NCBI GenBank assembly: GCA_001002325.1 | Contig: LCNZ01000002.1 | Coordinates: forward strand, 7,093-71,092 | DNA from: Candidatus Amesbacteria bacterium GW2011_GWB1_47_19 | GTDB lineage: Bacteria; Patescibacteriota; Microgenomatia; CAZETR01; Amesbacteraceae | Length of the DNA stretch: 64,000 bases | Direction: 5' to 3' | Shown: positions 450-33,629 of the stretch, one piece after another | How the letters are laid out: every line of letters begins with the position of its first letter | How positions within the stretch are numbered: the stretch's first letter is position 1 | Made by a program: the position numbers and the translations under genes | The notes under the pieces: model-generated | The model's input: the letters and a program-made list of their open reading frames with translations, nothing else | Database searches by the model: none | Told to the model about the DNA's origin: nothing

Positions 450-2051
450 GTGAAAACCGCGGTTTTGACGGGAATATTGCTCCTGGGACTGATTTTACGG
501 ACCGTTTGGTTGGATAAATATCCTCCGGGGCTGACTCCGGACGAGGCGGCATTTGGTTACAATGCCTACTCCGTCCTCCAAACCGGCAGTGACGAATGGG
601 GTACCCCCTGGTATAGGTTGGCTTTTACCAACCTCAGGTCCTTTGGTGATTATAAACTGCCTATGTATGTTTTTTTGGCCTTGTTCCCGGTCAAGATATT
701 CGGATTAAGCGAATTTGCCGTTCGATTGCCGAATGCTTTGATCGGTACCTTAGCCGTTGCCGCTGTCTATCTTCTGGGGAGTAAACTCTTTTCTGCAAAA
801 ACCGCCCTCTGGGCAGCATTTTTATTAGCTGTCTCCCCCTGGCATATCCAGCTGTCCCGTGGTGCCTTCGAAGCCAATCTGGTCACTTTTTTTCTCCCGC
901 TGGGGATATATCTGTTTCTGACCGGATCCGCTGTCTGGTCGGCGCTGGTACTGGGCCTTAATTTTTATTCATATCATTCTGCCCGGCTGCTGACCCCTTT
1001 GATTGTGATAATTCTTTTGATGTTTAAACTACCGGGGAAAATTAATCGCTTAATTTTCATAGCCGCCCTTTTTATCGTGACCGTCCCCGGCCTTGTGTCA
1101 ATGACTTCCGGAAGCATAGCCCGCGTTTCCGATATTGGCATAACCGGCCCTACCGATAATTGGCGATCTGTTGCCGACAGACGTTTTACCGCCCGCCAAT
1201 CCGGCCTACCGGATGGACTGGCCCGGCTGATATCCAACAAAGTCCAAACAGTGACTTCGCTTTATATACATAATTATCTGACGTATTTTTCTGGACAATT
1301 CCTGTTTACATCCGGTGCGAGTGAAGGGACTTATGGCATGCTACCGGGTAGGGGAGTACTTTATATAATTGAATTACCATTGTTGCTATATTTCCTGGTA
1401 CTACTTATTCGCAAACCGTCCCCGCAAATGTATTTGCTACTGTTGCTGCTTCTTATCTCCCCTATACCCGCCGCTCTGACAAAGGGACCGGGTTATGCCG
1501 CCAACCGGGCAGTTGTAATGCTTCCGTTTTTAATTCTCGCCATCTCATTCGGACTAACTCACCTTATAAAAAACAAACTCCTTACACTAATTACAATAAC
1601 TGTTTACTCCCTTTGTCTTCTCTTTTTCCTGGCTAATTATCTCTATCTCTCTCCCTCTCAAATTGCCCCGGCCATGCTTTATGGACGCCGGGAGGCACTG
1701 ACGAGAGTCGCCTCAATATCAGGTGGATTGGAGGAAGTACGAATCAGCCGATCCTTGTCAGAACCGCACATTTATCTGGCATTTTTCTCTCGTTTCTCGC
1801 CGGCGGAATATCAAATGTATTCTCGGAACTGGCCGGACCCGACGACTTTGGGTCTGAAATTTCTGGATCAGGTGGACGGGTACTCTTTAGATAAATATCG
1901 TTTCGGGAACCTGAATTTTGAGGCTCCGGTAGACCATTCGGTTCTTTATGTCGGCTTACCTTCAGACTTTCCCCCGGACTACCCCGGACTTTTCCGTATT
2001 GATTATCCGGACGGTCGCCCGGCGGTGACCGTAGCCGCAAAAAATCCATGA
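450..2051 (+). CDS. PMT_2/ArnT-like GT-C membrane glycosyltransferase (GT39/GT83 type), paralog 1
   Basis: GTG start. N-terminal TM, then LDKYPPGLTPDEAAFGYNAYSVLQTGSDEWG...FGDYKLP...GLSEFAVRLP, the diagnostic DE loop of protein-O-mannosyltransferase/ArnT family; about 11 predicted TM segments; C-terminal soluble domain. Confidence 0.8.
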   Translation: MKTAVLTGILLLGLILRTVWLDKYPPGLTPDEAAFGYNAYSVLQTGSDEWGTPWYRLAFTNLRSFGDYKLPMYVFLALFPVKIFGLSEFAVRLPNALIGTLAVAAVYLLGSKLFSAKTALWAAFLLAVSPWHIQLSRGAFEANLVTFFLPLGIYLFLTGSAVWSALVLGLNFYSYHSARLLTPLIVIILLMFKLPGKINRLIFIAALFIVTVPGLVSMTSGSIARVSDIGITGPTDNWRSVADRRFTARQSGLPDGLARLISNKVQTVTSLYIHNYLTYFSGQFLFTSGASEGTYGMLPGRGVLYIIELPLLLYFLVLLIRKPSPQMYLLLLLLLISPIPAALTKGPGYAANRAVVMLPFLILAISFGLTHLIKNKLLTLITITVYSLCLLFFLANYLYLSPSQIAPAMLYGRREALTRVASISGGLEEVRISRSLSEPHIYLAFFSRFSPAEYQMYSRNWPDPTTLGLKFLDQVDGYSLDKYRFGNLNFEAPVDHSVLYVGLPSDFPPDYPGLFRIDYPDGRPAVTVAAKNP

Positions 2052-3688
2052 AATATTTTCTCTTAATCTTACTACTTTGTCTCCCTGCGTTCGTGCAGAT
2101 GCTGAGGTTTGGTTTATATACTACCCACGACTTTCATTTCTTCCGTCAGTACGAATTTGATAAGTGTATATCCGATCATGTTTTCCCCTGCCGCTGGTCA
2201 GCGAATGCCGGTATGGGTTACGGAGAGCCGGTTTTCAATTTTTACGGCCAACTGCCTTATGTTTTCGGCCAGATATTCAAATATTTAGGTTTTTCAGTGA
2301 TTGATTCGGTAAAAACGGTTTTCATTCTCTCGCTGGTTCTTTCTTCTGTATTCATGTATCTGCTGTCCCGGCGGTTCTGGGGTCATTTGGGGGGTCTGAT
2401 ATCGGCTTTATTTTATGTTTTTGCTCCCTACCGGGCAATAGATGTCTGGGTTCGCGGTGCTCTGCCGGAAAGTCTGGCATTTGTGTTTTTCCCCCTCATC
2501 CTTCTGTCTCTGGAAAAGTATTTACATCGTCCCCGCCTATTACCGCTTTTAGAGTTCTCGTTATCCTGGGCGGGTTTAGTACTGGTCCACAATCTGTCCG
2601 CCTTTATGTTTTTTCCTTTTGTGATTATCTGGTGGCTATGGCGATCCCGGCAGTCGCGGGGTATCATGTCGGGAATTCCGCTTCTGGCCGCCTTCATCTT
2701 TTCGCTCTTTCTTTCGGCTTTTTACCTGCTCCCGGTCATATTTGAAAGCCGCTTAACGACTGTCAACGACACCACCCGGATTTATTACGAGTACGGTTTG
2801 CACTTTACTTCTTTAAAACAGTTGTTCGTTTCCCGTTTCTGGGGCTATGGCGGGTCAGTTTGGGGACTGAATGATACTATGAGCTTTTCCGCCGGCCACC
2901 TTCACTGGATACTTGCAGTCATTATCGGTTTATATTTGCTCATGAAACGTCAAATCAAATCACCATTAACTAATAACTATTTACTGTTCACCGGTCTCGG
3001 TATCTTCGCCCTTTTTTTAACTCACGGCAAATCCGATTTCATCTGGCGCCTGGTTCCTTATATCCGTTTCGTCCAGTTTCCCTGGCGATTTTTAACCATC
3101 ACTGCCCTTTTCCTCGCCCTTGCCAGCGGGAGTATCGCCCGCATCCTTCCCAATAAATTTATCCCCTATATACTACTACTGTTACTGTTGACCAATTTTA
3201 TGTTCTTCCGTCCGGATATCTGGCGTCCGATTTCTGATTCAGTCCAATTTTCCGGTGTTTTGTGGGACGAGCAGCGAGCCTCATCTCTCCAGGATTACTG
3301 GCCGAAATCGGCTCCGCTGAAGCCTCGGGAATTTGCCCCCTCTCTGCCGGAGTTCACAACGGGGCAGGGTCAGGTGGCAGTATTTCATAAATCTTCCCAC
3401 TCAGCTCAGGCGCAGATTACCGTTTCTTCCCCCCGGGCGGAAGTCCTTTTTCCCATTGTCTATTTTCCGGGATGGACAGCCCAAATTTCCGGCCGCAGGT
3501 TTCGGGTCATACCCTCGGGAGATTTAGGCAGGATTACCGTTCTTTTACCTGCCGGTAGTTACCTGGTACAGCTGAGGTTTACCGATACCCCCGTTCGGCG
3601 TATCGGCAATTTAGTAAGTCTGGTCTCCGGAATATTATTGCTGTCCGCCTTGCTGATTATCAAAAAACCGTCTTATGCAAAAAGTTAA
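2048..3688 (+). CDS. Polytopic membrane protein with C-terminal beta-rich extracytoplasmic domain (GT-C-like; YfhO/PTPS-related-like, family uncertain)
   Basis: ATGA overlap with the upstream gene. Many hydrophobic helices; N-terminal loop YTTHDFHFFRQYEF...AGMGYGEPVFNFYGQLPY; C-terminal about 120 aa hydrophilic domain followed by a final TM. No WWDYG OST motif. Confidence 0.55.
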   Translation: MKYFLLILLLCLPAFVQMLRFGLYTTHDFHFFRQYEFDKCISDHVFPCRWSANAGMGYGEPVFNFYGQLPYVFGQIFKYLGFSVIDSVKTVFILSLVLSSVFMYLLSRRFWGHLGGLISALFYVFAPYRAIDVWVRGALPESLAFVFFPLILLSLEKYLHRPRLLPLLEFSLSWAGLVLVHNLSAFMFFPFVIIWWLWRSRQSRGIMSGIPLLAAFIFSLFLSAFYLLPVIFESRLTTVNDTTRIYYEYGLHFTSLKQLFVSRFWGYGGSVWGLNDTMSFSAGHLHWILAVIIGLYLLMKRQIKSPLTNNYLLFTGLGIFALFLTHGKSDFIWRLVPYIRFVQFPWRFLTITALFLALASGSIARILPNKFIPYILLLLLLTNFMFFRPDIWRPISDSVQFSGVLWDEQRASSLQDYWPKSAPLKPREFAPSLPEFTTGQGQVAVFHKSSHSAQAQITVSSPRAEVLFPIVYFPGWTAQISGRRFRVIPSGDLGRITVLLPAGSYLVQLRFTDTPVRRIGNLVSLVSGILLLSALLIIKKPSYAKS

Positions 3689-5279
3689 AAATTGGCCATA
3701 TCTGCTTCTGTTATTGGTCATTTCCGGTCTTTTTTTACGCCTGGTCAGGCTTCCGGATTTCCCGCCCGGTCTTAATTGGGACGAAGCCAGTCTGGGATAT
3801 TCCGCCTATTCACTGTTAAAAACCGGTCATGACGAATGGGGATCTGCATCCCCTTTAATTTTTCGCGCTTTCGGGGATTACAAACTCCCCAGCTACATCT
3901 ACCTGGATGTTGTCCCCGTCGCATTTTTGGGATTAAATCCGTCGGGAGTGAGATTGCCGTCGGTTCTGGCAGGTACCTGCTTGATTCTCATGTCTTTCCT
4001 GTTGGCTCGGCAAATTTTTAAAGACGATCGGATAGCCTTGCTGACGGCACTGCTGGTGGCCATCGAACCGTGGTCGCTGTTTCTTTCCCGGGTGGGCCTT
4101 GAAGCCAATCTGGCAGCATTTCTTATTTGTGCCGGGATTGTTTTTCTGTTGCGGCACAAAATCACACCTGGCCTGTTGTTTTTGGGTTTATCTGTCTGGA
4201 CATACAACAGCGCCCGTCTCTTCACCCCTCTGTTTCTGTTGGCATACTGGGTCATCCGCCGTCCCAAACTATCAACGGTAAACTATTTACTATTAACTGT
4301 ATTTTTCGTACCCATGCTTCTTCAGCTTTTTTCCCCGTCCGGCCAAGCCCGGTACAAATGGGTGTCCTTAATCGACCAGGGGGCAATCAACCGCATCAAT
4401 GAACTTCGTCTGAATTCGGATTTGCCCGAGACCCTTTCCCGAATTTTCTTTAATAAAGTATCCTATTCACTATTCACTTTTACTGTTAATTACCTAAAAC
4501 ATTTCTCCCCGGATTTTCTCTTTTTTTCCGGCGGTAGCAACTACCAGTTTAATATCCCCGGATATGGGTTACTTTCGTTAATAAACCTCCCCTTCTTTTA
4601 TCTGGGCCTCCTGCACTTACCCGGATTTCACGATCGTAAAAATCGCGTCATTTTTCCCCTCTTAGCCTGGCTATTCCTGGCTCCCATTCCCGCCAGTTTG
4701 ACTCGGGACGCTCCTCATACCCTGCGGGCTATTACCCTGCTGCCTTTACCAATGCTTATATCGGCTTTCGGTGCAGTTAAGATTTGGGATAGATTAAAAA
4801 CTCATTTGCCGAATTATTTTCCCATTGTCTGGCTTGTCTGTTTAATCCTAAGTCTGGAATACTACACGACTACTGTCACTCCGGCTTACCGTACTGCTTA
4901 TTCCTGGTCCTGGCAATACGGCTATCGGGACATTGTTGCATATGTCAGAAACCATTATTCCGAATACGACCGGGTCATAGTTAGCAAAAGATATGGAGAA
5001 CCGCATATCTTTTTCCTGTTTTATTGGCCCTGGGACCCGGTTGCCTACCGGACAGATCCTGATCTGATCCGATATTTTAAGAGCGATTGGTATTGGGTGG
5101 ATAGTTTTGCCAAATTCAGGTTCGTCAACGATTGGGATTTGGTGGAATACGTAAGTCAGCCCCATCCAGGTCAAAAGTATTTAACCGTTTCCTCGCCGGA
5201 CAACGCCGCCCCCGGTACACCCCTCGGTCAAATTAATTTCCTCGACGGTCAGCCGGCTTTCATAATTAAAGAAAACTGA
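3675..5279 (+). CDS. PMT_2/ArnT-like GT-C glycosyltransferase, paralog 2
   Basis: LPDFPPGLNWDEASLGYSAYSLLKTGHDEWG...FGDYKLP motif; same architecture as 450-2051; overlaps the upstream gene by 14 bp. Confidence 0.8.
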   Translation: MQKVKNWPYLLLLLVISGLFLRLVRLPDFPPGLNWDEASLGYSAYSLLKTGHDEWGSASPLIFRAFGDYKLPSYIYLDVVPVAFLGLNPSGVRLPSVLAGTCLILMSFLLARQIFKDDRIALLTALLVAIEPWSLFLSRVGLEANLAAFLICAGIVFLLRHKITPGLLFLGLSVWTYNSARLFTPLFLLAYWVIRRPKLSTVNYLLLTVFFVPMLLQLFSPSGQARYKWVSLIDQGAINRINELRLNSDLPETLSRIFFNKVSYSLFTFTVNYLKHFSPDFLFFSGGSNYQFNIPGYGLLSLINLPFFYLGLLHLPGFHDRKNRVIFPLLAWLFLAPIPASLTRDAPHTLRAITLLPLPMLISAFGAVKIWDRLKTHLPNYFPIVWLVCLILSLEYYTTTVTPAYRTAYSWSWQYGYRDIVAYVRNHYSEYDRVIVSKRYGEPHIFFLFYWPWDPVAYRTDPDLIRYFKSDWYWVDSFAKFRFVNDWDLVEYVSQPHPGQKYLTVSSPDNAAPGTPLGQINFLDGQPAFIIKEN

Positions 5280-5280
5280 A

Positions 5281-6918
5281 ATGGGTAGAAAAATATTATT
5301 AATTTCGGTTCTTATTCTTGGACTTGGCCTCAGGCTGATTCGGCTGGATAACCGTCCGGCAGGATTCACTTGGGACGAAGCGGCCTTGGGTTACAACGCT
5401 TATTCGCTTTTATTCACCGGCAAGGACGAACACGCGGCATTAATGCCCCTGGTTTTTAAATCCTTCGGTGATTACAAACCCGGTTTATATATTTATTTCT
5501 CAGTTCCCGCGGTAGCCATCTTTGGCCTTAACGAATTTGCCACCCGTCTGCCCTCCGCTATCTTCGGCACCCTGCTTGTCCTCGTTGTTTATTTGATAAG
5601 TAAAGAATTAGAAAGTTTATTGAAAATTGAAAATTGTAAATTGAAAATTGCACCAGCAGCAGCCTTGCTGATGGCGGTAAACCCCTGGGCTATCCACTTC
5701 TCCCGCGGGGCCTGGGAAGCCAACCTTGCGCTGTTTCTTACCACTTTGGGTGTCACGTTTTTTATCCGGGGAATCAAAAATAATTCTCATTTCCCCTATC
5801 TCATTTCTGCTTTCTTCCTCGGTCTGACACTCTGGTCCTACCAGGGGGCCAAACTTTTCACTCCGCTGCTACTTTTATCCCTGATCGTCGTTTACCGGCC
5901 TGTTATTAGTATAAAAAAAATGCTCTTACCATTGGGACTATTTCTTGTATTACTATTTCCGATTCTGGCAGGATTCGGAAACCAATCCGGCCGACTCAAA
6001 GTCTTCAGCGTATTTTCCTATACCCGCACCCGGGAATATGTATCCCAAATACTTACCCAGGATCAAACAACCCGTCCCGGGTGGGCTTATTACCTGTATC
6101 ACACTGAACTGCTGGATCAGTTACGCGGCATCGCCCAAAGATATCTTAACCATCTGTCACCCCGATTTTTGTTCGTGGACGGCGACTGGTCTTCGCTTCG
6201 CCACTCCACTCCCTACCAGGGATATCTTTTTTACCCCCAACTATTAATTCTTTTGATGGGTTTATACCTGCTGATAAAAAACTTTTCCCATCCATTGTCA
6301 AAGTTTGTCATCATATGGTTGTTTTTGGCACCGGTCCCGGCCGCCCTTTCCCGGGATATTGTTTCCGGCGTCAGATCTCTGCCTTTGATCATTCCCTTAA
6401 CAATCATTTCCGGCATCGGCTTAGCCAAAATTTCCCGTTATTCAACTCTGTTACTCTGTTTCTCTGTAACTCTGTTACTTTTCTTTATCTATTTCCTGGA
6501 TCTCTATTTCATCCATTCGCCTCAGTTTACCGCCCGGGACTGGCTATACCCTTATCGCCCTGCATTTTCGCTCATCAGGCCCTATCTCTCATCATACCGC
6601 CGCATTTATTTCACCGATCAACTCGGCCAGCCCTATATTTTCTATCTTTTTTACAACCAGGTATCCCCCGCATACTACCAGTCCCAAAATGCCTTCATCC
6701 CCAATCCCTCAGGAGACGTCGGTCGGGTCGACCGGGTTGATAATCTGGTATTTGCCCCGGTTTACTGGCCTTCTTTGCGTTACGAAAGTTCTGCGTTGTT
6801 CATCGGAGGCCAGTATGAATTACCTGAATCAGACCTAAACCAGCCCGGCCTGGAGCGGATTGCCGAGATTACTTACCCCAACGGAGATCCGGCACTCAGG
6901 ATTGTCGGTATACCATGA
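5281..6918 (+). CDS. PMT_2/ArnT-like GT-C glycosyltransferase, paralog 3
   Basis: LDNRPAGFTWDEAALGYNAYSLLFTGKDEH...FGDYKP motif; carries an in-frame AT-rich heptamer repeat insert (ESLLKIENCKLKIA) in the loop after TM3. Confidence 0.8.
   Translation: MGRKILLISVLILGLGLRLIRLDNRPAGFTWDEAALGYNAYSLLFTGKDEHAALMPLVFKSFGDYKPGLYIYFSVPAVAIFGLNEFATRLPSAIFGTLLVLVVYLISKELESLLKIENCKLKIAPAAALLMAVNPWAIHFSRGAWEANLALFLTTLGVTFFIRGIKNNSHFPYLISAFFLGLTLWSYQGAKLFTPLLLLSLIVVYRPVISIKKMLLPLGLFLVLLFPILAGFGNQSGRLKVFSVFSYTRTREYVSQILTQDQTTRPGWAYYLYHTELLDQLRGIAQRYLNHLSPRFLFVDGDWSSLRHSTPYQGYLFYPQLLILLMGLYLLIKNFSHPLSKFVIIWLFLAPVPAALSRDIVSGVRSLPLIIPLTIISGIGLAKISRYSTLLLCFSVTLLLFFIYFLDLYFIHSPQFTARDWLYPYRPAFSLIRPYLSSYRRIYFTDQLGQPYIFYLFYNQVSPAYYQSQNAFIPNPSGDVGRVDRVDNLVFAPVYWPSLRYESSALFIGGQYELPESDLNQPGLERIAEITYPNGDPALRIVGIP
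5620..5650. repeat. In-frame AT-rich heptamer tandem repeat (TTGAAAA/GAAAATT, about 4.4 copies) inside PMT_2 paralog 3
   Basis: ttgaaaattgaaaattgtaaattgaaaattg read directly; encodes LKIENCKLKI, which is absent from paralogs 1 and 2. Confidence 0.8.
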
Positions 6919-8570
6919 AACGATACTTGCTTATCCTGATTTTGTTATTGGCTGCTGTTTTACGTCTGACAGCCTTGTCCCGCTATCCGGTCGGATTCAA
7001 TGCCGACGAAGCCGCCTTGGGATACAACGCCTATTCTCTATTAACCACCGGTAGGGATGAGCATGGCCACCTCTGGCCAATAAACCTCGAATCGTTTGGT
7101 GATTTCAAACCTGCCCTCTATGCGTATCTTTTAATCCCGTTCATCAAAGTATTCGGTTTGAGTGAATTTGCCGTCCGTCTCCCATCCGCCCTGGCCGGGA
7201 TATTTTCAGTTTGGCTGATATATCTGTTAACTAAGGAGTTATTTACCTCTCCCTCGTCTCCCCCTCCTGAATCAGGAGGGGGATGGGGGGTGGTACAGAA
7301 GATACCGGTTATTGCAGCATTTATGCTGGCGATATCGCCGTGGCATCTTCATTTTTCCCGGGGAGCCTGGGAAGTCAACCTGGCCACCACCTTCATTTTG
7401 TCCGGAGTTTATTTTTTTATTCTATATCAGAAAAATCACAAATTTTTGAATTTTGAATTTTGTGTTTTGAGTTTTGCTCTGTCCATGTACACCTACCAGT
7501 CTACCCGCATTATTGCTCCGCTCTTGGGTCTGGGCTTGGCTTTGATGTATTTCAAATCTCTGATCCGGTATCCCAAACAGTTGCTTCTGGCTTTTCTCAC
7601 CCTGGTTTTTATACTTTCCCCCTTAATGCTGTCTATTATCCGTTCTGATGCTTCCTCCCGCTTATCCGGCGTCGGCCTTCTGGCAGATGACGGGCCCGTG
7701 AACCGCGTAAACCAGCTACGCGGTCAGCATTCAGCCTTAAATTCACTTTTATCCCGTGAGCTGCACAACCGTCCCGTTATCTACACTATTCAATTTATGA
7801 AAAATTATCTAGACCATTTCAACGGGGATTTTCTGTTTATAACCGGCGACCTGATACCCCGTAATCGTATTCCGGAAACAGGACTTCTGTATCTGACCGA
7901 TTTTCTACTTCTGGTTTTGGGAGTTTTTTATCTCTTCCGCCGGTCCAGACCACACACCCGCATCATTTGGTTGTGGCTGGCTGTCGCCCCGGTGGCTTCC
8001 GCTCTGACTTTTCAGACCCCCCACGCTCTCCGGGCCCAAAATCTGGTCATCCCGCTAACTATAATTTCCACCGCTGGAATTTATTTCATAATTTCTAAAG
8101 CACGTTACTCAAAAGCCCTGTTACTCTTACTATTTACTATTTACACATTTCAATTCACCCGTTACCTCCACCAGTATTATATCCACTATCCCCAAACTTA
8201 TCCTTATGCCTGGGAATACGGTTTTAAAGAACTTGTAAGCTATGTGGAATCGGTTAAGGACGGGTATGATCAGATCCTGGTTACCGACAAATACGATCAG
8301 CCCTACATCCTTTTTCTGTGGTATTCCCGTTACCCTCCAGCCAGATTTCAGGGTACACATCAACTGACTATTCGTGATAAGTTTAACTTTTCCACCGTCA
8401 GGGCTTATGACAAATACAAATTTACGGATACTTCCTGGGACAAAGTTCGGGATATCCACGGCACCCTTATCGTTGCCGCTCCGGATGACATTCCGGAAGT
8501 CGGGGTGCATGTGGTAAAAACTATTTATTTCCCCGGCGGTTCACCAGCATTTAAAATTGTTTCAAATTAA
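6915..8570 (+). CDS. PMT_2/ArnT-like GT-C glycosyltransferase, paralog 4
   Basis: LSRYPVGFNADEAALGYNAYSLLTTGRDEHG...FGDFKP motif; ATGA overlap with the upstream gene; in-frame insert SPSSPPPESGGGWGVV at the same loop as paralog 3. Confidence 0.8.
   Translation: MKRYLLILILLLAAVLRLTALSRYPVGFNADEAALGYNAYSLLTTGRDEHGHLWPINLESFGDFKPALYAYLLIPFIKVFGLSEFAVRLPSALAGIFSVWLIYLLTKELFTSPSSPPPESGGGWGVVQKIPVIAAFMLAISPWHLHFSRGAWEVNLATTFILSGVYFFILYQKNHKFLNFEFCVLSFALSMYTYQSTRIIAPLLGLGLALMYFKSLIRYPKQLLLAFLTLVFILSPLMLSIIRSDASSRLSGVGLLADDGPVNRVNQLRGQHSALNSLLSRELHNRPVIYTIQFMKNYLDHFNGDFLFITGDLIPRNRIPETGLLYLTDFLLLVLGVFYLFRRSRPHTRIIWLWLAVAPVASALTFQTPHALRAQNLVIPLTIISTAGIYFIISKARYSKALLLLLFTIYTFQFTRYLHQYYIHYPQTYPYAWEYGFKELVSYVESVKDGYDQILVTDKYDQPYILFLWYSRYPPARFQGTHQLTIRDKFNFSTVRAYDKYKFTDTSWDKVRDIHGTLIVAAPDDIPEVGVHVVKTIYFPGGSPAFKIVSN
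7259..7283. repeat. Perfect 10-bp GC-rich hairpin (tccccctcct GAATC aggaggggga) inside the paralog-4-specific insert
   Basis: Inverted repeat read directly; lies in the codons for PPPESGGG, a segment absent from paralogs 1 and 2. Confidence 0.8.
7443..7476. repeat. In-frame heptamer tandem repeat (TTTTGAA-like, about 4.5 copies) inside PMT_2 paralog 4
   Basis: tttttgaattttgaattttgtgttttgagttttg read directly. Confidence 0.8.
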
Positions 8571-30332: not shown

Positions 30333-30566
30333 ATGACCATAACACAGATTACTGGAGTCGGATCGAATGTTGTCCAGGCAGCTTATGAATTAACGACAAG
30401 ATATTATTCCCAGGGATTAAGAGGTTATGAGCTTTTAGGCACAGTAAAAAGTAATATATTACGTCAACAGATAAAACGTCGCGGTAATCACAATTTAGAC
30501 CCTGACACAAATGATGTTATCCGACAGATTTTTGACGAGGTTTTAGATCAGGCACGGGGTAAATAA
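30333..30566 (+). CDS. Small hypothetical protein (77 aa)
   Basis: Isolated ORF preceded by a 134-bp AT-rich intergenic region; no recognisable motif. Confidence 0.35.
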   Translation: MTITQITGVGSNVVQAAYELTTRYYSQGLRGYELLGTVKSNILRQQIKRRGNHNLDPDTNDVIRQIFDEVLDQARGK

Positions 30567-30574
30567 TTTTGTCT

Positions 30575-31258
30575 TTATATTCGATTCAAAAAATTCCAGG
30601 TGTTTTCGGCATTTACAGACCCGACCGTCATTTGTAAAGGTTTAAAGCGCAAGGCAGGACGAATTCCGCTCATTTTGTAATATTGGGTCATATTACTCTC
30701 GTCTGGTAATTTTGTAAGTCTGGCAACAGAAATATGCAGAATATTAGTCAAGGGCAAGGGAGAGAATCCTTCTCGTATACCATCACTAGATACGGTTTCC
30801 CTAGCACTTAATATCACTTGCGGAATATTTGTGGCCGCTATAACAGTATTCCCGCCTTTATCCACGAACATATAGTCAAAACTAAGGGTTAACCCTGGAA
30901 GACGCCTTATATTGTTTTCACCCAAAATTATTTTTCTCATCTTCTCTTCCTTCTCGGGTATTACTGCATCCTCCCTTTTTATCTCAAGCACGGTTGAGTG
31001 TAATGGGAAGTCTATACCAGCCATAAACAATTCTGCCCCCGTTGACTCTGCCACCTTTTGCAAAGGTTCAGTAATCCGCTTTAAAAACTCCTGCTGAGAA
31101 CTCTCATCAAAAGTAAGAGTGATACCAAATCTTTTTCTCAACTCTTCTTCTGGAAAAGATTTAAATTCCACAAACTCGCCCTGCAATGCACCCTGGTAGC
31201 CGAGTCTTGCATTTCCAATATATTTTACAATTGTCGGTAATCTAGTAATTGTTTCCAT
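30575..31258 (-). CDS. 2H-phosphoesterase-superfamily protein (LigT/cyclic phosphodiesterase-like)
   Basis: Two H-x-[TS]-x motifs about 90 aa apart: FPLHSTVL and ILHISVAR. The track start is a TTG at 31294; internal ATG (METITRL) at 31258 is preferred. Confidence 0.5.
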   Translation of the reverse strand: METITRLPTIVKYIGNARLGYQGALQGEFVEFKSFPEEELRKRFGITLTFDESSQQEFLKRITEPLQKVAESTGAELFMAGIDFPLHSTVLEIKREDAVIPEKEEKMRKIILGENNIRRLPGLTLSFDYMFVDKGGNTVIAATNIPQVILSARETVSSDGIREGFSPLPLTNILHISVARLTKLPDESNMTQYYKMSGIRPALRFKPLQMTVGSVNAENTWNFLNRI

Positions 31259-31265
31259 CGGCCGT

Positions 31266-31294
31266 ATTGTACTAAGCAATTTAATAAAATGCAA
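31266..31294 (-). promoter_or_regulatory. Sigma70-like promoter candidate TTGCAT-17-TACAAT (minus strand) for the 2H-phosphoesterase gene
   Basis: The -35 abuts the repeat copy; the -10 lies only about 7 nt from the ATG, so the transcript would be near-leaderless. Confidence 0.35.
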
Positions 31295-31363
31295 ACTTAC
31301 GTTGTATTTTCCTTTAATACCAAACTTCCAAAAAGAATAAAATATGGAAGTGAATTAGGCTTG
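31294..31363. repeat. Copy 1 of about 70-bp direct repeat containing a 7-bp inverted repeat (ACTTCCA N13 TGGAAGT)
   Basis: aacttacgttgtattttcctttaataccaaacttccaaaaagaataaaatatggaagtgaattaggcttg; about 85% identical to 31766-31837. Confidence 0.8.
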
Positions 31364-31444
31364 AAGTGGATAGGGATACAGTTCACCTTTGAACCCTTGG
31401 GATAATGTGCTACCCCTTAGGTTTAATTGGCATGATTTTTTTAG

Positions 31445-31726
31445 CTAATCCAGATGATGTTTATACGCTCTCATGTCACGGGTTTTGACACCTCTAACCG
31501 CTGCTTTCCTGATTTGACGGTTGCGTTCACTAAAGTTCTCATCAATCCCGTCTTTTATTGCACCTCGTTCGACGATTTCTTCCATCGGACCGTCCGAGTC
31601 ACCATATGCACTCCGGGCAACTAAATTCGCTAACATATTTCCAAAAATCCGAAGCGTAGCATCAACCATGATTAACGGAATCATCAACATACAACCACTC
31701 TTCTCTGGGTTTTCTCGGCTAGCCAT
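31445..31726 (-). CDS. Small hypothetical protein (93 aa), basic C-terminus
   Basis: ATG start; flanked on both sides by the two copies of the about 70-bp repeat; no recognisable motif. Confidence 0.35.
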   Translation of the reverse strand: MASRENPEKSGCMLMIPLIMVDATLRIFGNMLANLVARSAYGDSDGPMEEIVERGAIKDGIDENFSERNRQIRKAAVRGVKTRDMRAYKHHLD

Positions 31727-31738
31727 ATTACTAAATGG

Positions 31739-31767
31739 ATTTTATCACATTATAAGACTATATACAA
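31739..31767 (-). promoter_or_regulatory. Sigma70-like promoter candidate TTGTAT-17-TAAAAT (minus strand) for the 93-aa ORF
   Basis: Same geometry as the site upstream of 30575-31258: the -35 overlaps the first 2 nt of repeat copy 2, and the -10 is 12 nt from the ATG. Confidence 0.35.
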
Positions 31768-31837
31768 CTTACGTTGTATTTTCCTATAATACCCGACTTC
31801 CGAAAAAAGAATATAATCTGGAAGTGAATTAAGCTTG
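31766..31837. repeat. Copy 2 of the about 70-bp direct repeat
   Basis: aacttacgttgtattttcctataatacccgacttccgaaaaaagaatataatctggaagtgaattaagcttg. Confidence 0.8.
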
Positions 31838-32074
31838 GCCGGAGTCGATTACCCCGCTCACTCTACAGTATTAGAATTTCAAGATTCCGACCAGTCGGTT
31901 TCACCCCAAACCTCAGAAGCCTTAAAAAAAGCTACTTCTTCCACCAGGCTTTCATTAGAGAGAATACCCTTGAGCCGTTTCCAGCATCCCTGAAGAAATT
32001 ACTCGGGCCGGCGACAACCTGGTTGCCATTGGAAATACTCAACAATTAGATCCTCTCCGTAACCTGGGACTTCC

Positions 32075-32992
32075 TCACCGGACCCCAACCCTGAAATCAA
32101 CATATCCGCGATAACACTCCTGAGCTAGAGTTAAAAGCTTCCCATGTATATCCGGATTGCAGGCACCGATAGCCACAGACTTCGTCTCCGCGGTGACCGG
32201 GTTATCTTCTAAATCTGTAGCCACTCCGCCGGCCTGTTCAGTCGCAAAGGCCCCGCATCTCACATCCCACTCACCTCCGATTGCGTGCGTAATCCAAGCG
32301 TGTCCTCTGGTAATAGCCTGACGTTGATTATTCACATTGCTGCCGGCCGACAATAAACTAATATCCGCGTCTAAAATATCCGGCAATCTGGCAATCATCG
32401 CCGAGTAGGGCCCGGCTGTAGTCGTTCGCAAAGTAGTATCCATAAATACGGTCGCCCTTTTTTTGTCCGGTTGCGGCATATGAACTTTCTCAATATGTTC
32501 CCCAGTGGGTATTAGTTTTTCATCTAGACCTACCTGGTATACCAAGCCTGTTTGACAAACTAATAACTCGCGCGAAAAAGGATCACAAATTGCACCCGCC
32601 AGAGGGCAGCCGTTTTCTTCTACAATCACTGTAGTTGTAGAGCCGGCAAGCCCGCCCTTATAAATACCGGTTCCATCCAGCGGATCAAAGATCCACCTTC
32701 GCCTACTTTCGCTTTTGCCTGAAGTACCTGATTCTTCTCCGGTAATTAAATCATGAGGGTATTTGTTAGTAATAATGTTTGCAATAACCGCCTCTGAAAT
32801 TCGATCTGCCTTTGTTTGCCACGTATTATCATGAGTCTTCAAAATCGCCACTAAATCTCCTGACCGGTGAAAACGCACTAATTTACGGCCACCCAAGATA
32901 GCCGCTTCAGCACAGACGATCGCATCTTTAGAAAATCCTAAATTCGTCAGTAACTCAGTTGGTCTGGCTTCTTCTTCCCTTAAGTTTCGCAC
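32075..32992 (-). CDS. Inositol monophosphatase-family phosphatase (second copy)
   Basis: WIFDPLDGTGIYKGG and GEWDVRCGAFATEQAGGVATDLEDNP motifs. Confidence 0.75.
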   Translation of the reverse strand: MRNLREEEARPTELLTNLGFSKDAIVCAEAAILGGRKLVRFHRSGDLVAILKTHDNTWQTKADRISEAVIANIITNKYPHDLITGEESGTSGKSESRRRWIFDPLDGTGIYKGGLAGSTTTVIVEENGCPLAGAICDPFSRELLVCQTGLVYQVGLDEKLIPTGEHIEKVHMPQPDKKRATVFMDTTLRTTTAGPYSAMIARLPDILDADISLLSAGSNVNNQRQAITRGHAWITHAIGGEWDVRCGAFATEQAGGVATDLEDNPVTAETKSVAIGACNPDIHGKLLTLAQECYRGYVDFRVGVR

Positions 32993-32993
32993 A

Positions 32994-33629
32994 GTGGAAA
33001 GGATTATATCACACTATAAGTTTAGTATACTTATTATTTATACCCCGGAAAGTAATCGTGATACAATCGATTCTATGGTCAAACCCCGGACCAGATTAAT
33101 ACTCAAAGAGATTAAACAGGTCCTAGATCACGTCGATGAGAAACAAGCCATAGATTTTATTAATGTCATTTTAAGTGCCAGGAGAATCGTTGTTTGTGGC
33201 GCGGGCAGAGTCGGAATTGCAACCAGTGCATTCGGTATGCGCTTATCACAATTAGGTTTGTCCGCCTTTAGTATAGGAGACAGTAATGTGCCCAGTATCG
33301 GTAAGCGGGATGTCTTACTAACCGCATCAGGTTCGGGAGAAACACAAACCATAATCGATATCACCTCAAGAGCAAAACAAAATGAGGTAAAAATCGCCTT
33401 AATAACAGCTAGCCCCAAATCAAGACTTGCCCAGATGGCTGATTGCATACTCATACTCAACTCCCCGACAAAATATAGCGATCATAAAAGTATTGAAACC
33501 AAACAGCCAATGACTGCACTAAATGAACAATGTCTCTGGATATTTTATGATTCTTTAGTTCTAGAACTCATGGAAATTATGGGTGAAACTAGTCAAAGTA
33601 TGTGGGCTAGACACTCGACTTTAGAATAA
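32994..33629 (+). CDS. SIS-domain sugar-phosphate isomerase (PHI/HxlB-like or SIS-only arabinose-5-P isomerase)
   Basis: RIVVCGAGRVGIATSAFGMRL...DVLLTASGSGETQ...KIALITASPKS, a single SIS domain with no CBS pair. Confidence 0.7.
   Translation: MERIISHYKFSILIIYTPESNRDTIDSMVKPRTRLILKEIKQVLDHVDEKQAIDFINVILSARRIVVCGAGRVGIATSAFGMRLSQLGLSAFSIGDSNVPSIGKRDVLLTASGSGETQTIIDITSRAKQNEVKIALITASPKSRLAQMADCILILNSPTKYSDHKSIETKQPMTALNEQCLWIFYDSLVLELMEIMGETSQSMWARHSTLE

Follow-up and report, generated by a model that had tools for sequence, protein, structure and literature searches.

A 72-nt repeat upstream of two co-oriented genes in a mosaic island of Candidatus Amesbacteria: a local duplication predicted to carry a promoter half

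In the 64-kb stretch of Candidatus Amesbacteria DNA analyzed here (the window), two minus-strand genes each stand behind a copy of the same segment of approximately 70 bp, which contains an inverted repeat and leads into a promoter-like site. A reading of the sequence alone (the sequence-only reading) had taken this pattern for a shared operator or UP-like module that co-regulates both genes. The question raised by the locus is whether the segment is such a module, a mobile element, or a piece of DNA that was copied within the locus and retained. The best explanation, to which we assign a probability of roughly 0.55, is a local duplication, predicted to serve as the upstream part of two sigma-70 promoters with short leaders.

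The locus and its genes

The gene downstream of the first copy (30575..31258, minus strand) encodes a 227-aa protein identical to UX91_C0002G0036 of Amesbacteria GW2011_GWB1_47_19. The host population consists of uncultivated Candidatus Amesbacteria from groundwater, which belong to the Candidate Phyla Radiation (CPR), a group with genomes of roughly 1 Mb. The family of this protein comprises 182 representatives in 1.8 billion clusters, and 17 of 51 family members matched the Pfam entry LigT_PEase (PF02834). Two motifs, H87-x-T89 and H175-x-S177, are invariant or near-invariant in the family, with H87 and H175 strictly invariant. An AF2 model was obtained with a pLDDT of 96.6, for which the top matches of a Foldseek search against the PDB were all 2H enzymes. 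The two HxT/S motifs and the predicted 2H fold identify the product as a member of the 2H (LigT-like) phosphoesterase superfamily, and together with the PF02834 matches they bear out the 2H-phosphoesterase-like identity that had been read from the sequence.

The gene downstream of the second copy is a 93-aa orphan ORF (31445..31726, minus strand) located between the two copies. It exhibited a coding-like frame signal, with a score of 2.87 that corresponds to the 20th percentile of true-frame chunks and lies above all 845 wrong-frame chunks. No homologue was found among 5.8 billion proteins, and comparison with the 227-aa protein and with all other frames of the window detected no similarity. 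A single-sequence model of low confidence showed a helical protein whose N-terminal helix is hydrophobic. A search of PHROGs gave no match for the orphan ORFs or for the 227-aa protein, and PADLOC returned one very weak match only, for the 93-aa ORF (E = 0.029); a link of the orphan ORFs to defence or to phages was rejected on these results. No recognisable regulator or DNA-binding domain was found with Pfam, PHROGs, or PADLOC in the two ORFs beside the repeat.

The surroundings form an island of low G+C content (33–40%, compared with approximately 47% for the genome) that extends over about 12–52 kb and carries sugar-nucleotide and glycosyltransferase genes. The island is of mixed, mosaic composition, with orphan genes and a pseudogene. 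A 77-aa orphan ORF is also present at the locus, and the nearby IMPase gene has one 50%-identical homologue. In another genome, a 2H homologue lies near ORFs that start like sugar-nucleotidyltransferases and HAD phosphatases, as judged from their first residues only. The statement that the two genes behind the repeat are the only ones unrelated to glycan synthesis could not be upheld, given the 77-aa ORF, the pseudogene, and the sugar-nucleotidyltransferase-like starts near the 2H homologue elsewhere.

The same locus is present in several independent assemblies, which are the ANAN16 scaffolds, GCA_001773795.1, GCA_003488165.1, and a SPAdes contig from another study. The region of interest is 100% identical across them, except that L004 differs at one position, outside the repeat copies, and the repeat is therefore not an assembly artefact. 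The gene order is the same in all public contigs listed for the locus, and no empty site, excision, or insertion polymorphism of the 472-bp unit was seen among the public contigs listed for it.

The repeat, its palindrome, and a dead paralogue

Copy 1 of the repeat occupies 31294..31363 (70 nt) upstream of the 227-aa gene, and copy 2 occupies 31766..31837 (72 nt) upstream of the 93-aa ORF, in direct orientation to each other. They are identical at 64 of 72 aligned columns (88.9%) with one 2-nt indel, and their start-to-start distance is 472–474 bp, which confirms the two copies described before, 472 bp apart, with an identity somewhat above the 85% or so first estimated. Within the window, BLAST detected the pair at E = 1e-14, and a repeat of 72 nt is far beyond chance. 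When a 1-nt indel is allowed, profile alignment adds approximately 6 nt of homology, which then reaches 31288 in copy 1 and 31761 in copy 2 and covers the −35-like hexamers TTGCAT and TTGTAT. The mismatches are evenly distributed along the copies and the borders are sharp, and the flanks of the two copies are unrelated according to local alignment against shuffles (p = 0.22 and p = 0.77). A tandem duplication involving the entire 472-bp unit was also considered and rejected, since the DNA after the two copies is unrelated and the 93-aa protein resembles neither the 227-aa protein nor other frames.

The repeat has only these two copies in the DNA examined. No further copy was found in the 64-kb window, either as an exact match or with up to three mismatches in either half. 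The search was extended into 7.95 kb and 7.48 kb of flanking sequence, and an nhmmer profile of the copies run on the window plus these 15.4 kb (79.4 kb, about 80 kb of the genome) gave no third copy; the next-best hit had E = 1.9 and was located inside a gene. The suggested search for more copies thus returned none, including at random positions, in 79.4 kb. A 20-mer of the repeat, AACTTACGTTGTATTTTCCT, had no match in GTDB representative genomes or JGI contigs, collections that evidently lack this locus itself even though the JGI set includes contigs of the organism, and a 19-mer had no match in IMG/VR. The 18-mer GGAAGTGAATTARGCTTG gave 34 matches in unrelated taxa, all limited to the 18-mer and in a number expected by chance. 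BLAST of the repeat against plasmids and phages detected nothing. The DNA upstream of five 2H homologues (approximately 32% identity) contained nothing related to the repeat, nor were small-ORF homologues present there. The ACTTCC/GGAAGT hexamers showed no enrichment in other intergenic regions, and the idea that the palindrome might recur at other promoters found no site in the 79.4 kb and none upstream of the five homologues.

We also looked for the hallmarks of mobile sequences. The repeat has no terminal inverted repeats, its ends (AACTTACG... and ...TAGGCTTG) being non-complementary, and no target-site duplication was detected in the flanks of the copies. The attC end boxes (RYYYAAC/GTTRRRY) with paired L boxes are absent, and the ends do not fit them. 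No third repeat follows the next gene, and no integrase, recombinase, or transposase was found among the Pfam-annotated genes within ±10 kb.

The inverted repeat of copy 1 is located at 31324..31351 and reads ACTTCCA-N14-TGGAAGT. That of copy 2 (31796..31825) reads ACTTCC-N18-GGAAGT, in which a seventh pair exists only as G.T. The hexamers are hence 16 nt apart in copy 1 and 18 nt apart in copy 2, a difference of 2 nt, so that the palindrome first described for both copies, with a 13- or 14-nt spacer, holds for copy 1 but not for copy 2. Its arms are intact in both copies. In both, by our own count, 66.5 bp lie between its center and the first base of the downstream −10 hexamer, and it is centered near −78 in both promoters. 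The inverted repeat is confined to the middle of the unit, leaving the 3′ third unpaired. Of random 72-mers drawn from the island, 25% contain a stem of at least 6 bp whose loop does not exceed 20 nt, and 7% contain one of at least 7 bp. The palindrome is accordingly weak evidence, no better than chance for a 72-mer, and is most likely incidental; it appears in both copies because they share common descent.

The history of the unit is suggested by the DNA to the right of copy 2, which passes directly into the remains of a second 2H gene. The plus strand from 31817 encodes SGSELSLAGVDYPAHSTVLEF..., which is homologous to residues 73–121 of the 227-aa protein (tblastn E = 1e-7). The first part of this relic (31820..31951, plus strand) begins inside copy 2, corresponds to positions 73–115 of the family profile (HMM E = 8e-6), and contains the first HxT motif (GSELSLAGVDYPAHSTVLEF...), of which HST is retained. 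The second part (31980..32060, plus strand) lies in another frame and corresponds to profile positions 144–170. It is the next-best profile match in the whole window, is collinear with the first part, and extends in the direction of the IMPase gene, the 3′ end of which it overlaps slightly. An HRT tripeptide beyond the aligned stretch, at the place expected for the second motif, may be a remnant of the second catalytic motif. Judged by these alignments, the relic is a frameshifted, 5′- and 3′-truncated pseudogene of a paralogous 2H gene, located between copy 2 and the IMPase gene. This pseudogene and its overlap with copy 2 are new here, and they reveal the history of the locus.

The overlap consists of the right-hand 18 nt of the repeat (GGAAGTGAATTAAGCTTG), which encode G-S-E-L-S-L, collinear with G-A-E-L-F-M of the 227-aa protein (G74–M79). 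The score of these six codons was reached by random 6-mers of the window at p = 2.8e-4. Copy 1 contains these 18 nt too, but the relic does not continue there; a seeming resemblance after copy 1 (‘GIQF’ versus ‘GIDF’) was ruled out by a score of −2.8 bits for this flank against the family profile. The relic extends approximately 240 nt beyond copy 2 only, and the repeat unit would therefore be a chimeric junction between non-coding and ex-coding DNA, with the right side of copy 2 as the ancestral context and copy 1 as the secondary, derived copy. The right arm of the palindrome, GGAAGT, coincides in copy 2 with the G-S codons of the pseudogene, and would thus represent two former codons. Since this arm appears to lie in ex-coding DNA, the unit looks like a copied rearrangement junction rather than an evolved module.

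Predicted promoters and competing explanations

The predicted promoter of the 227-aa gene, P1 (31266..31294, minus strand), consists of TTGCAT (31294–31289), a 17-nt spacer, and TACAAT (31271–31266), which is followed after 7 nt by the ATG at 31258. That of the 93-aa ORF, P2 (31739..31767, minus strand), consists of TTGTAT (31767–31762), a 17-nt spacer, and a TG-extended TAAAAT (31744–31739), followed after 12 nt by the ATG at 31726. P1 is identified by consensus match only, and the geometry of both was verified base by base: each copy does end at a −35-like hexamer with a −10-like hexamer 17 nt further on the minus strand, as first described. The duplicated part ends before the −10 hexamer, and each promoter keeps its own, unrelated −10 region; the extended −10 of P2 is TGaTAAAAT, whereas P1 has no TG extension. 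The hexamers TTGCAT and TTGTAT at 17 nt match TTGACA at 3/6 positions, and TTTGCA at 18 nt matches at 4/6. A consensus scan listed P1 but not P2, because the −35 of P2 matches at only 3/6 positions. In the region as a whole, 6 promoter-like matches were found against 6.1 expected from shuffles.

The arrangement at these two genes is shared by others. In the window, −10 boxes lie 6–12 nt before the start codon at no fewer than six operon-leading genes and are often TGn-extended, and Shine-Dalgarno motifs are rare. The layout of P1 and P2 recurs at four other genes of the window. The P2 sequence TGATAAAAT is much like the corresponding sequences of the IMPase (TGATATAAT) and SIS (TGATACAAT) promoters. 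Both minus-strand promoters are credible as predictions on this basis, and the leaders of both genes are predicted to be very short or absent. The sequence-only reading had pointed to the short distance from the −10 to the ATG as a sign of leaderless or near-leaderless transcripts. The distances of 7 and 12 nt stand; the short leader is not special to these genes, since short-leader promoters are common in the window. The TG-extended −10 boxes at 6–12 nt and the lack of Shine-Dalgarno motifs suggest that leaderless or near-leaderless expression is widespread in this CPR lineage; a search of the literature on CPR leaderless translation gave nothing directly usable. The tract next to the −35 hexamer is approximately 75% A+T by our own count, compared with approximately 61% for the island, and no pattern resembling the UP consensus was seen in it.

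These observations are best explained if approximately 72–78 bp were copied once, recently and locally, from upstream of the 93-aa ORF to upstream of the 2H gene; alternatively to direct copying, both copies may derive from one earlier junction. The copied unit would comprise approximately 54–60 bp of A/T-rich non-coding DNA ending in TTGYAT and, on the opposite strand, 18 bp that represent the first surviving codons of the dead 2H paralogue. The two co-oriented genes would thereby have become near-identical from about −30 to −107, and two promoters of sigma-70 type, with very short or no leaders, would receive from the unit their −35 hexamer and the A/T-rich DNA upstream of it. If the two genes are co-expressed at all, that would be a side effect of their common upstream half. 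An origin by a single duplication appears close to certain, because uniform identity of 89% over 72 nt together with passenger codons of a dead gene would not arise by convergence. The copy was probably retained for completing a promoter, since the −35-like hexamer precedes each of the two unrelated −10 boxes by 17 nt, and P1 lacks a TG extension that could take the place of a −35. Such identical spacing to unrelated −10 boxes is unlikely for a random patch, which, like the intact palindrome arms, counts against the best explanation. The identical 17-nt register hints at selection for promoter function, and it would be in keeping with a regulatory site too.

A regulatory site is indeed what the best-surviving alternative proposes, though we consider it unlikely. 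It holds that the palindrome, perhaps with a third half-site ACTTAC located 29 nt away, is an operator, or that the segment is an UP element, which co-regulates the 2H gene and the 93-aa ORF. The same register to the −35 and −10 boxes in both copies agrees with this, as do the preserved arms and the conserved 29-nt distance from ACTTAC to ACTTCC, and P1, without a TG extension, would rely on the −35 hexamer of the element. However, half-sites of an operator would hardly be expected to differ in spacing by 2 bp, and a stem found in 7–25% of random 72-mers, with a right arm that appears to be ex-coding DNA, provides little to build on. Other intergenic regions show no enrichment of the hexamers, no other site was found in 79 kb, nothing similar precedes the five homologous 2H genes, and the neighboring ORFs have no recognisable DNA-binding domain. 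The identity is moreover uniform at 89% over the full length, which suggests recent copying rather than selected motifs. The proposal of a shared operator or UP module thus keeps its positional part, namely the same register at credible promoters of two co-oriented genes, and is weakened in the rest, as the spacing varies, no more sites were found in 79 kb and no regulator in the two ORFs beside the repeat, and one arm is probably of coding origin; it is possible but unsupported, and a dedicated operator is probably absent.

The plus strand was considered as well. A plus-strand promoter-like site is located in copy 2 at 31761..31790 (TATACA, 18 nt, TATAAT; 10/12), which is the best consensus promoter of the region, and copy 1 has a weaker counterpart at 31289–31318 (ATGCAA, 18 nt, TTTAAT). 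The unit could accordingly be an expression module that supplies the spacer, the −10 (TATAAT/TTTAAT), and the first approximately 45 nt of two transcripts, including a hairpin, the Shine-Dalgarno-like box GGAAGTGA, and a TTG start. An A-to-G change at the seventh stem pair keeps a G.U pair only in the plus-strand RNA, and the TTG with which each copy finishes begins an ORF (14 and 52 codons). Yet the folding energies of both strands are within the range of shuffles (z = −0.25 to −1.6), and promoter-like matches occur at chance frequency. A scan for intrinsic terminators gave 0 sites, with a stem of 6–7 bp, a loop of 14–18 nt, and no U run in copy 2. Rfam gave no match over the window at the gathering score and none at E ≤ 1 for 31200–32100. 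The downstream ORFs are mutually unrelated, one of them being a fragment of the pseudogene, and Shine-Dalgarno motifs are little used in the window. This module is hence improbable. Its transcripts could be small or antisense RNAs running, in copy 1, counter to the 3′ end of the 93-aa ORF and, in copy 2, through the pseudogene towards IMPase.

A more speculative thought is that the unit serves as a recombination hot-spot or cassette junction where small orphan genes enter a CPR polysaccharide island or are exchanged inside it, or as the operator of a regulator acting on leaderless promoters. This is a long shot. If a cassette junction were true, an inserted gene would receive a ready-made promoter half, a simple, integrase-independent plug-in expression of new genes. 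Least probable of all is a mobile or recombination element. It might be a dispersed repeat of MITE/REP type, or an att/attC-like site that took up a 472-bp cassette (the 93-aa ORF plus one repeat), with direct repeats left on both sides. Direct repeats do bracket a small orphan gene, 472 bp lies within the size range of gene cassettes, the setting is a mosaic low-GC glycan island with a pseudogene, and copy 2 has its right border where the dead gene is truncated, but the terminal inverted repeats, target-site duplications, and end boxes are missing, the inverted repeat is only mid-unit, no third copy follows the next gene, no integrase or transposase was found among genes with Pfam annotation in the 20 kb around the locus, the public contigs listed show no excision or insertion polymorphism, and no copies were found in IMG/VR, plasmids, or phages.

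Comparison with known systems

Local duplication with retention of a promoter half can be set beside four kinds of known system. Integron attC sites with their cassettes and MITE- or Correia-like repeats resemble the present case in having direct repeats of approximately 70 bp with an internal inverted repeat and an orphan ORF of cassette size, and small repeats of the promoter-carrying MITE/Correia type can bear promoter parts. They differ from it in their end boxes, terminal inverted repeats or target duplications, since none of these was found here, nor was an integrase or a polymorphism, and the copies in the 79.4 kb are only two. An UP element or class I activator site would share the position (about −38 to −107), the A/T-rich DNA, and the palindrome near −78; unlike such a site, the unit showed no pattern resembling the UP consensus, its palindrome varies in spacing by 2 bp, and it appears to be partly former coding DNA. 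A palindrome upstream of two genes is not always an operator, which is a caveat for annotation.

Extended −10 sigma-70 and leaderless promoters are similar in having the −10 at 7–12 nt, the TG at P2, IMPase, and SIS, a weak −35-like hexamer, and no Shine-Dalgarno motif. The duplicated part stops before the −10 here, unlike in a duplication of a whole promoter. As a side result of wider use, extended −10 promoters of leaderless type appear to be common in this CPR window.

The closest likeness is to the segmental duplications and scars of mosaic polysaccharide islands, which share the sharp borders, two copies per locus, a truncated and frameshifted adjacent paralogue, a low-GC island of mixed composition, and orphan genes. 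The feature is in this sense an ordinary, locus-specific segmental duplication, carrying a predicted promoter half, in a poorly known lineage. If the best explanation holds, it provides a small, clear case in which a promoter half was copied within a mosaic island and a neighboring gene gained a −35 region, and it illustrates that former coding DNA can become part of a promoter-half unit. Rearrangement scars are usually functionless, whereas the exact register of the present copy with a −10 box suggests that it was retained for completing a promoter.

Promoters with short leaders

Predicted −10 boxes, often of the TGn-extended form, were located 6–12 nt 5' of the start codon for the genes starting at 450, 31258, 31726, 32992, 33075, and 51038. 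Shine-Dalgarno motifs were infrequent upstream of the approximately 60 genes in the window. Judging by these motifs, transcripts in this Amesbacteria window appear as a rule to be leaderless or nearly so. Within an 82-nt intergenic region (32993–33074), the IMPase-like gene and the SIS-domain gene diverge from two back-to-back predicted extended −10 promoters (TGATATAAT and TGATACAAT, respectively), which lie 7–10 nt from the respective start codons.

The low-GC island and its gene remnants

A low-GC island extends over about 12000–52000 of the window, where the G+C content is 33–40% as compared with about 47% in the flanks, and carries genes for sugar-nucleotide synthesis together with glycosyltransferase genes. 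The IMPase-like gene (47%) and the orphan 93-aa ORF (31445–31726, minus strand) (45%) are G+C outliers within it, as would fit a mosaic origin. The plus strand carries the remains of a second 2H-phosphoesterase paralogue, now a pseudogene, at 31820–31951 and 31980–32060, possibly extending to about 32090. The relic is frameshifted and truncated at both ends, shares about 39% identity with the intact 227-aa gene on the opposite strand (30575–31258), and is convergent with the IMPase gene, whose 3' end it slightly overlaps. Its presence suggests that the island has undergone rearrangement or allelic replacement in the past.

A third orphan ORF (30333–30566, plus strand; 77 aa) exhibited a coding-like frame signal, and no match to it was obtained in Pfam, PHROGs, or PADLOC. 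It is convergent with the intact 2H-phosphoesterase gene, their stop codons being 8 nt apart. Separately, 450–8570 is occupied by a tandem array of five paralogues, each about 540 aa long, that gave PMT_2-type (glycosyl/mannosyltransferase-like) matches, and two more are located on the opposite strand just beyond the window edge; a 42-nt coding repeat, detected as family D1 in the repeat search, is common to these paralogues.

Copies of the element and homologues of the 2H gene

A 20-mer of the approximately 72-bp repeated element (31294–31363 and 31766–31837) gave no match in the JGI contig scan or the GTDB representative genomes. As JGI contigs and NCBI assemblies do exist for the population carrying the element, both collections evidently lack this locus, and the negative result is uninformative on further copies in this genome.

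A homologue of the 2H gene with about 33% identity was found on a 640-kb metagenome contig (L044, 3142–8659), on which nearby ORFs start like sugar-nucleotidyltransferases (MKVVLPIAGRGSRF...) and HAD phosphatases, as judged from their first residues only. The 2H family itself may be part of phospho-sugar or teichoic-acid-like metabolism, contrary to the sequence-only reading that the 2H gene looks unrelated to glycan synthesis.
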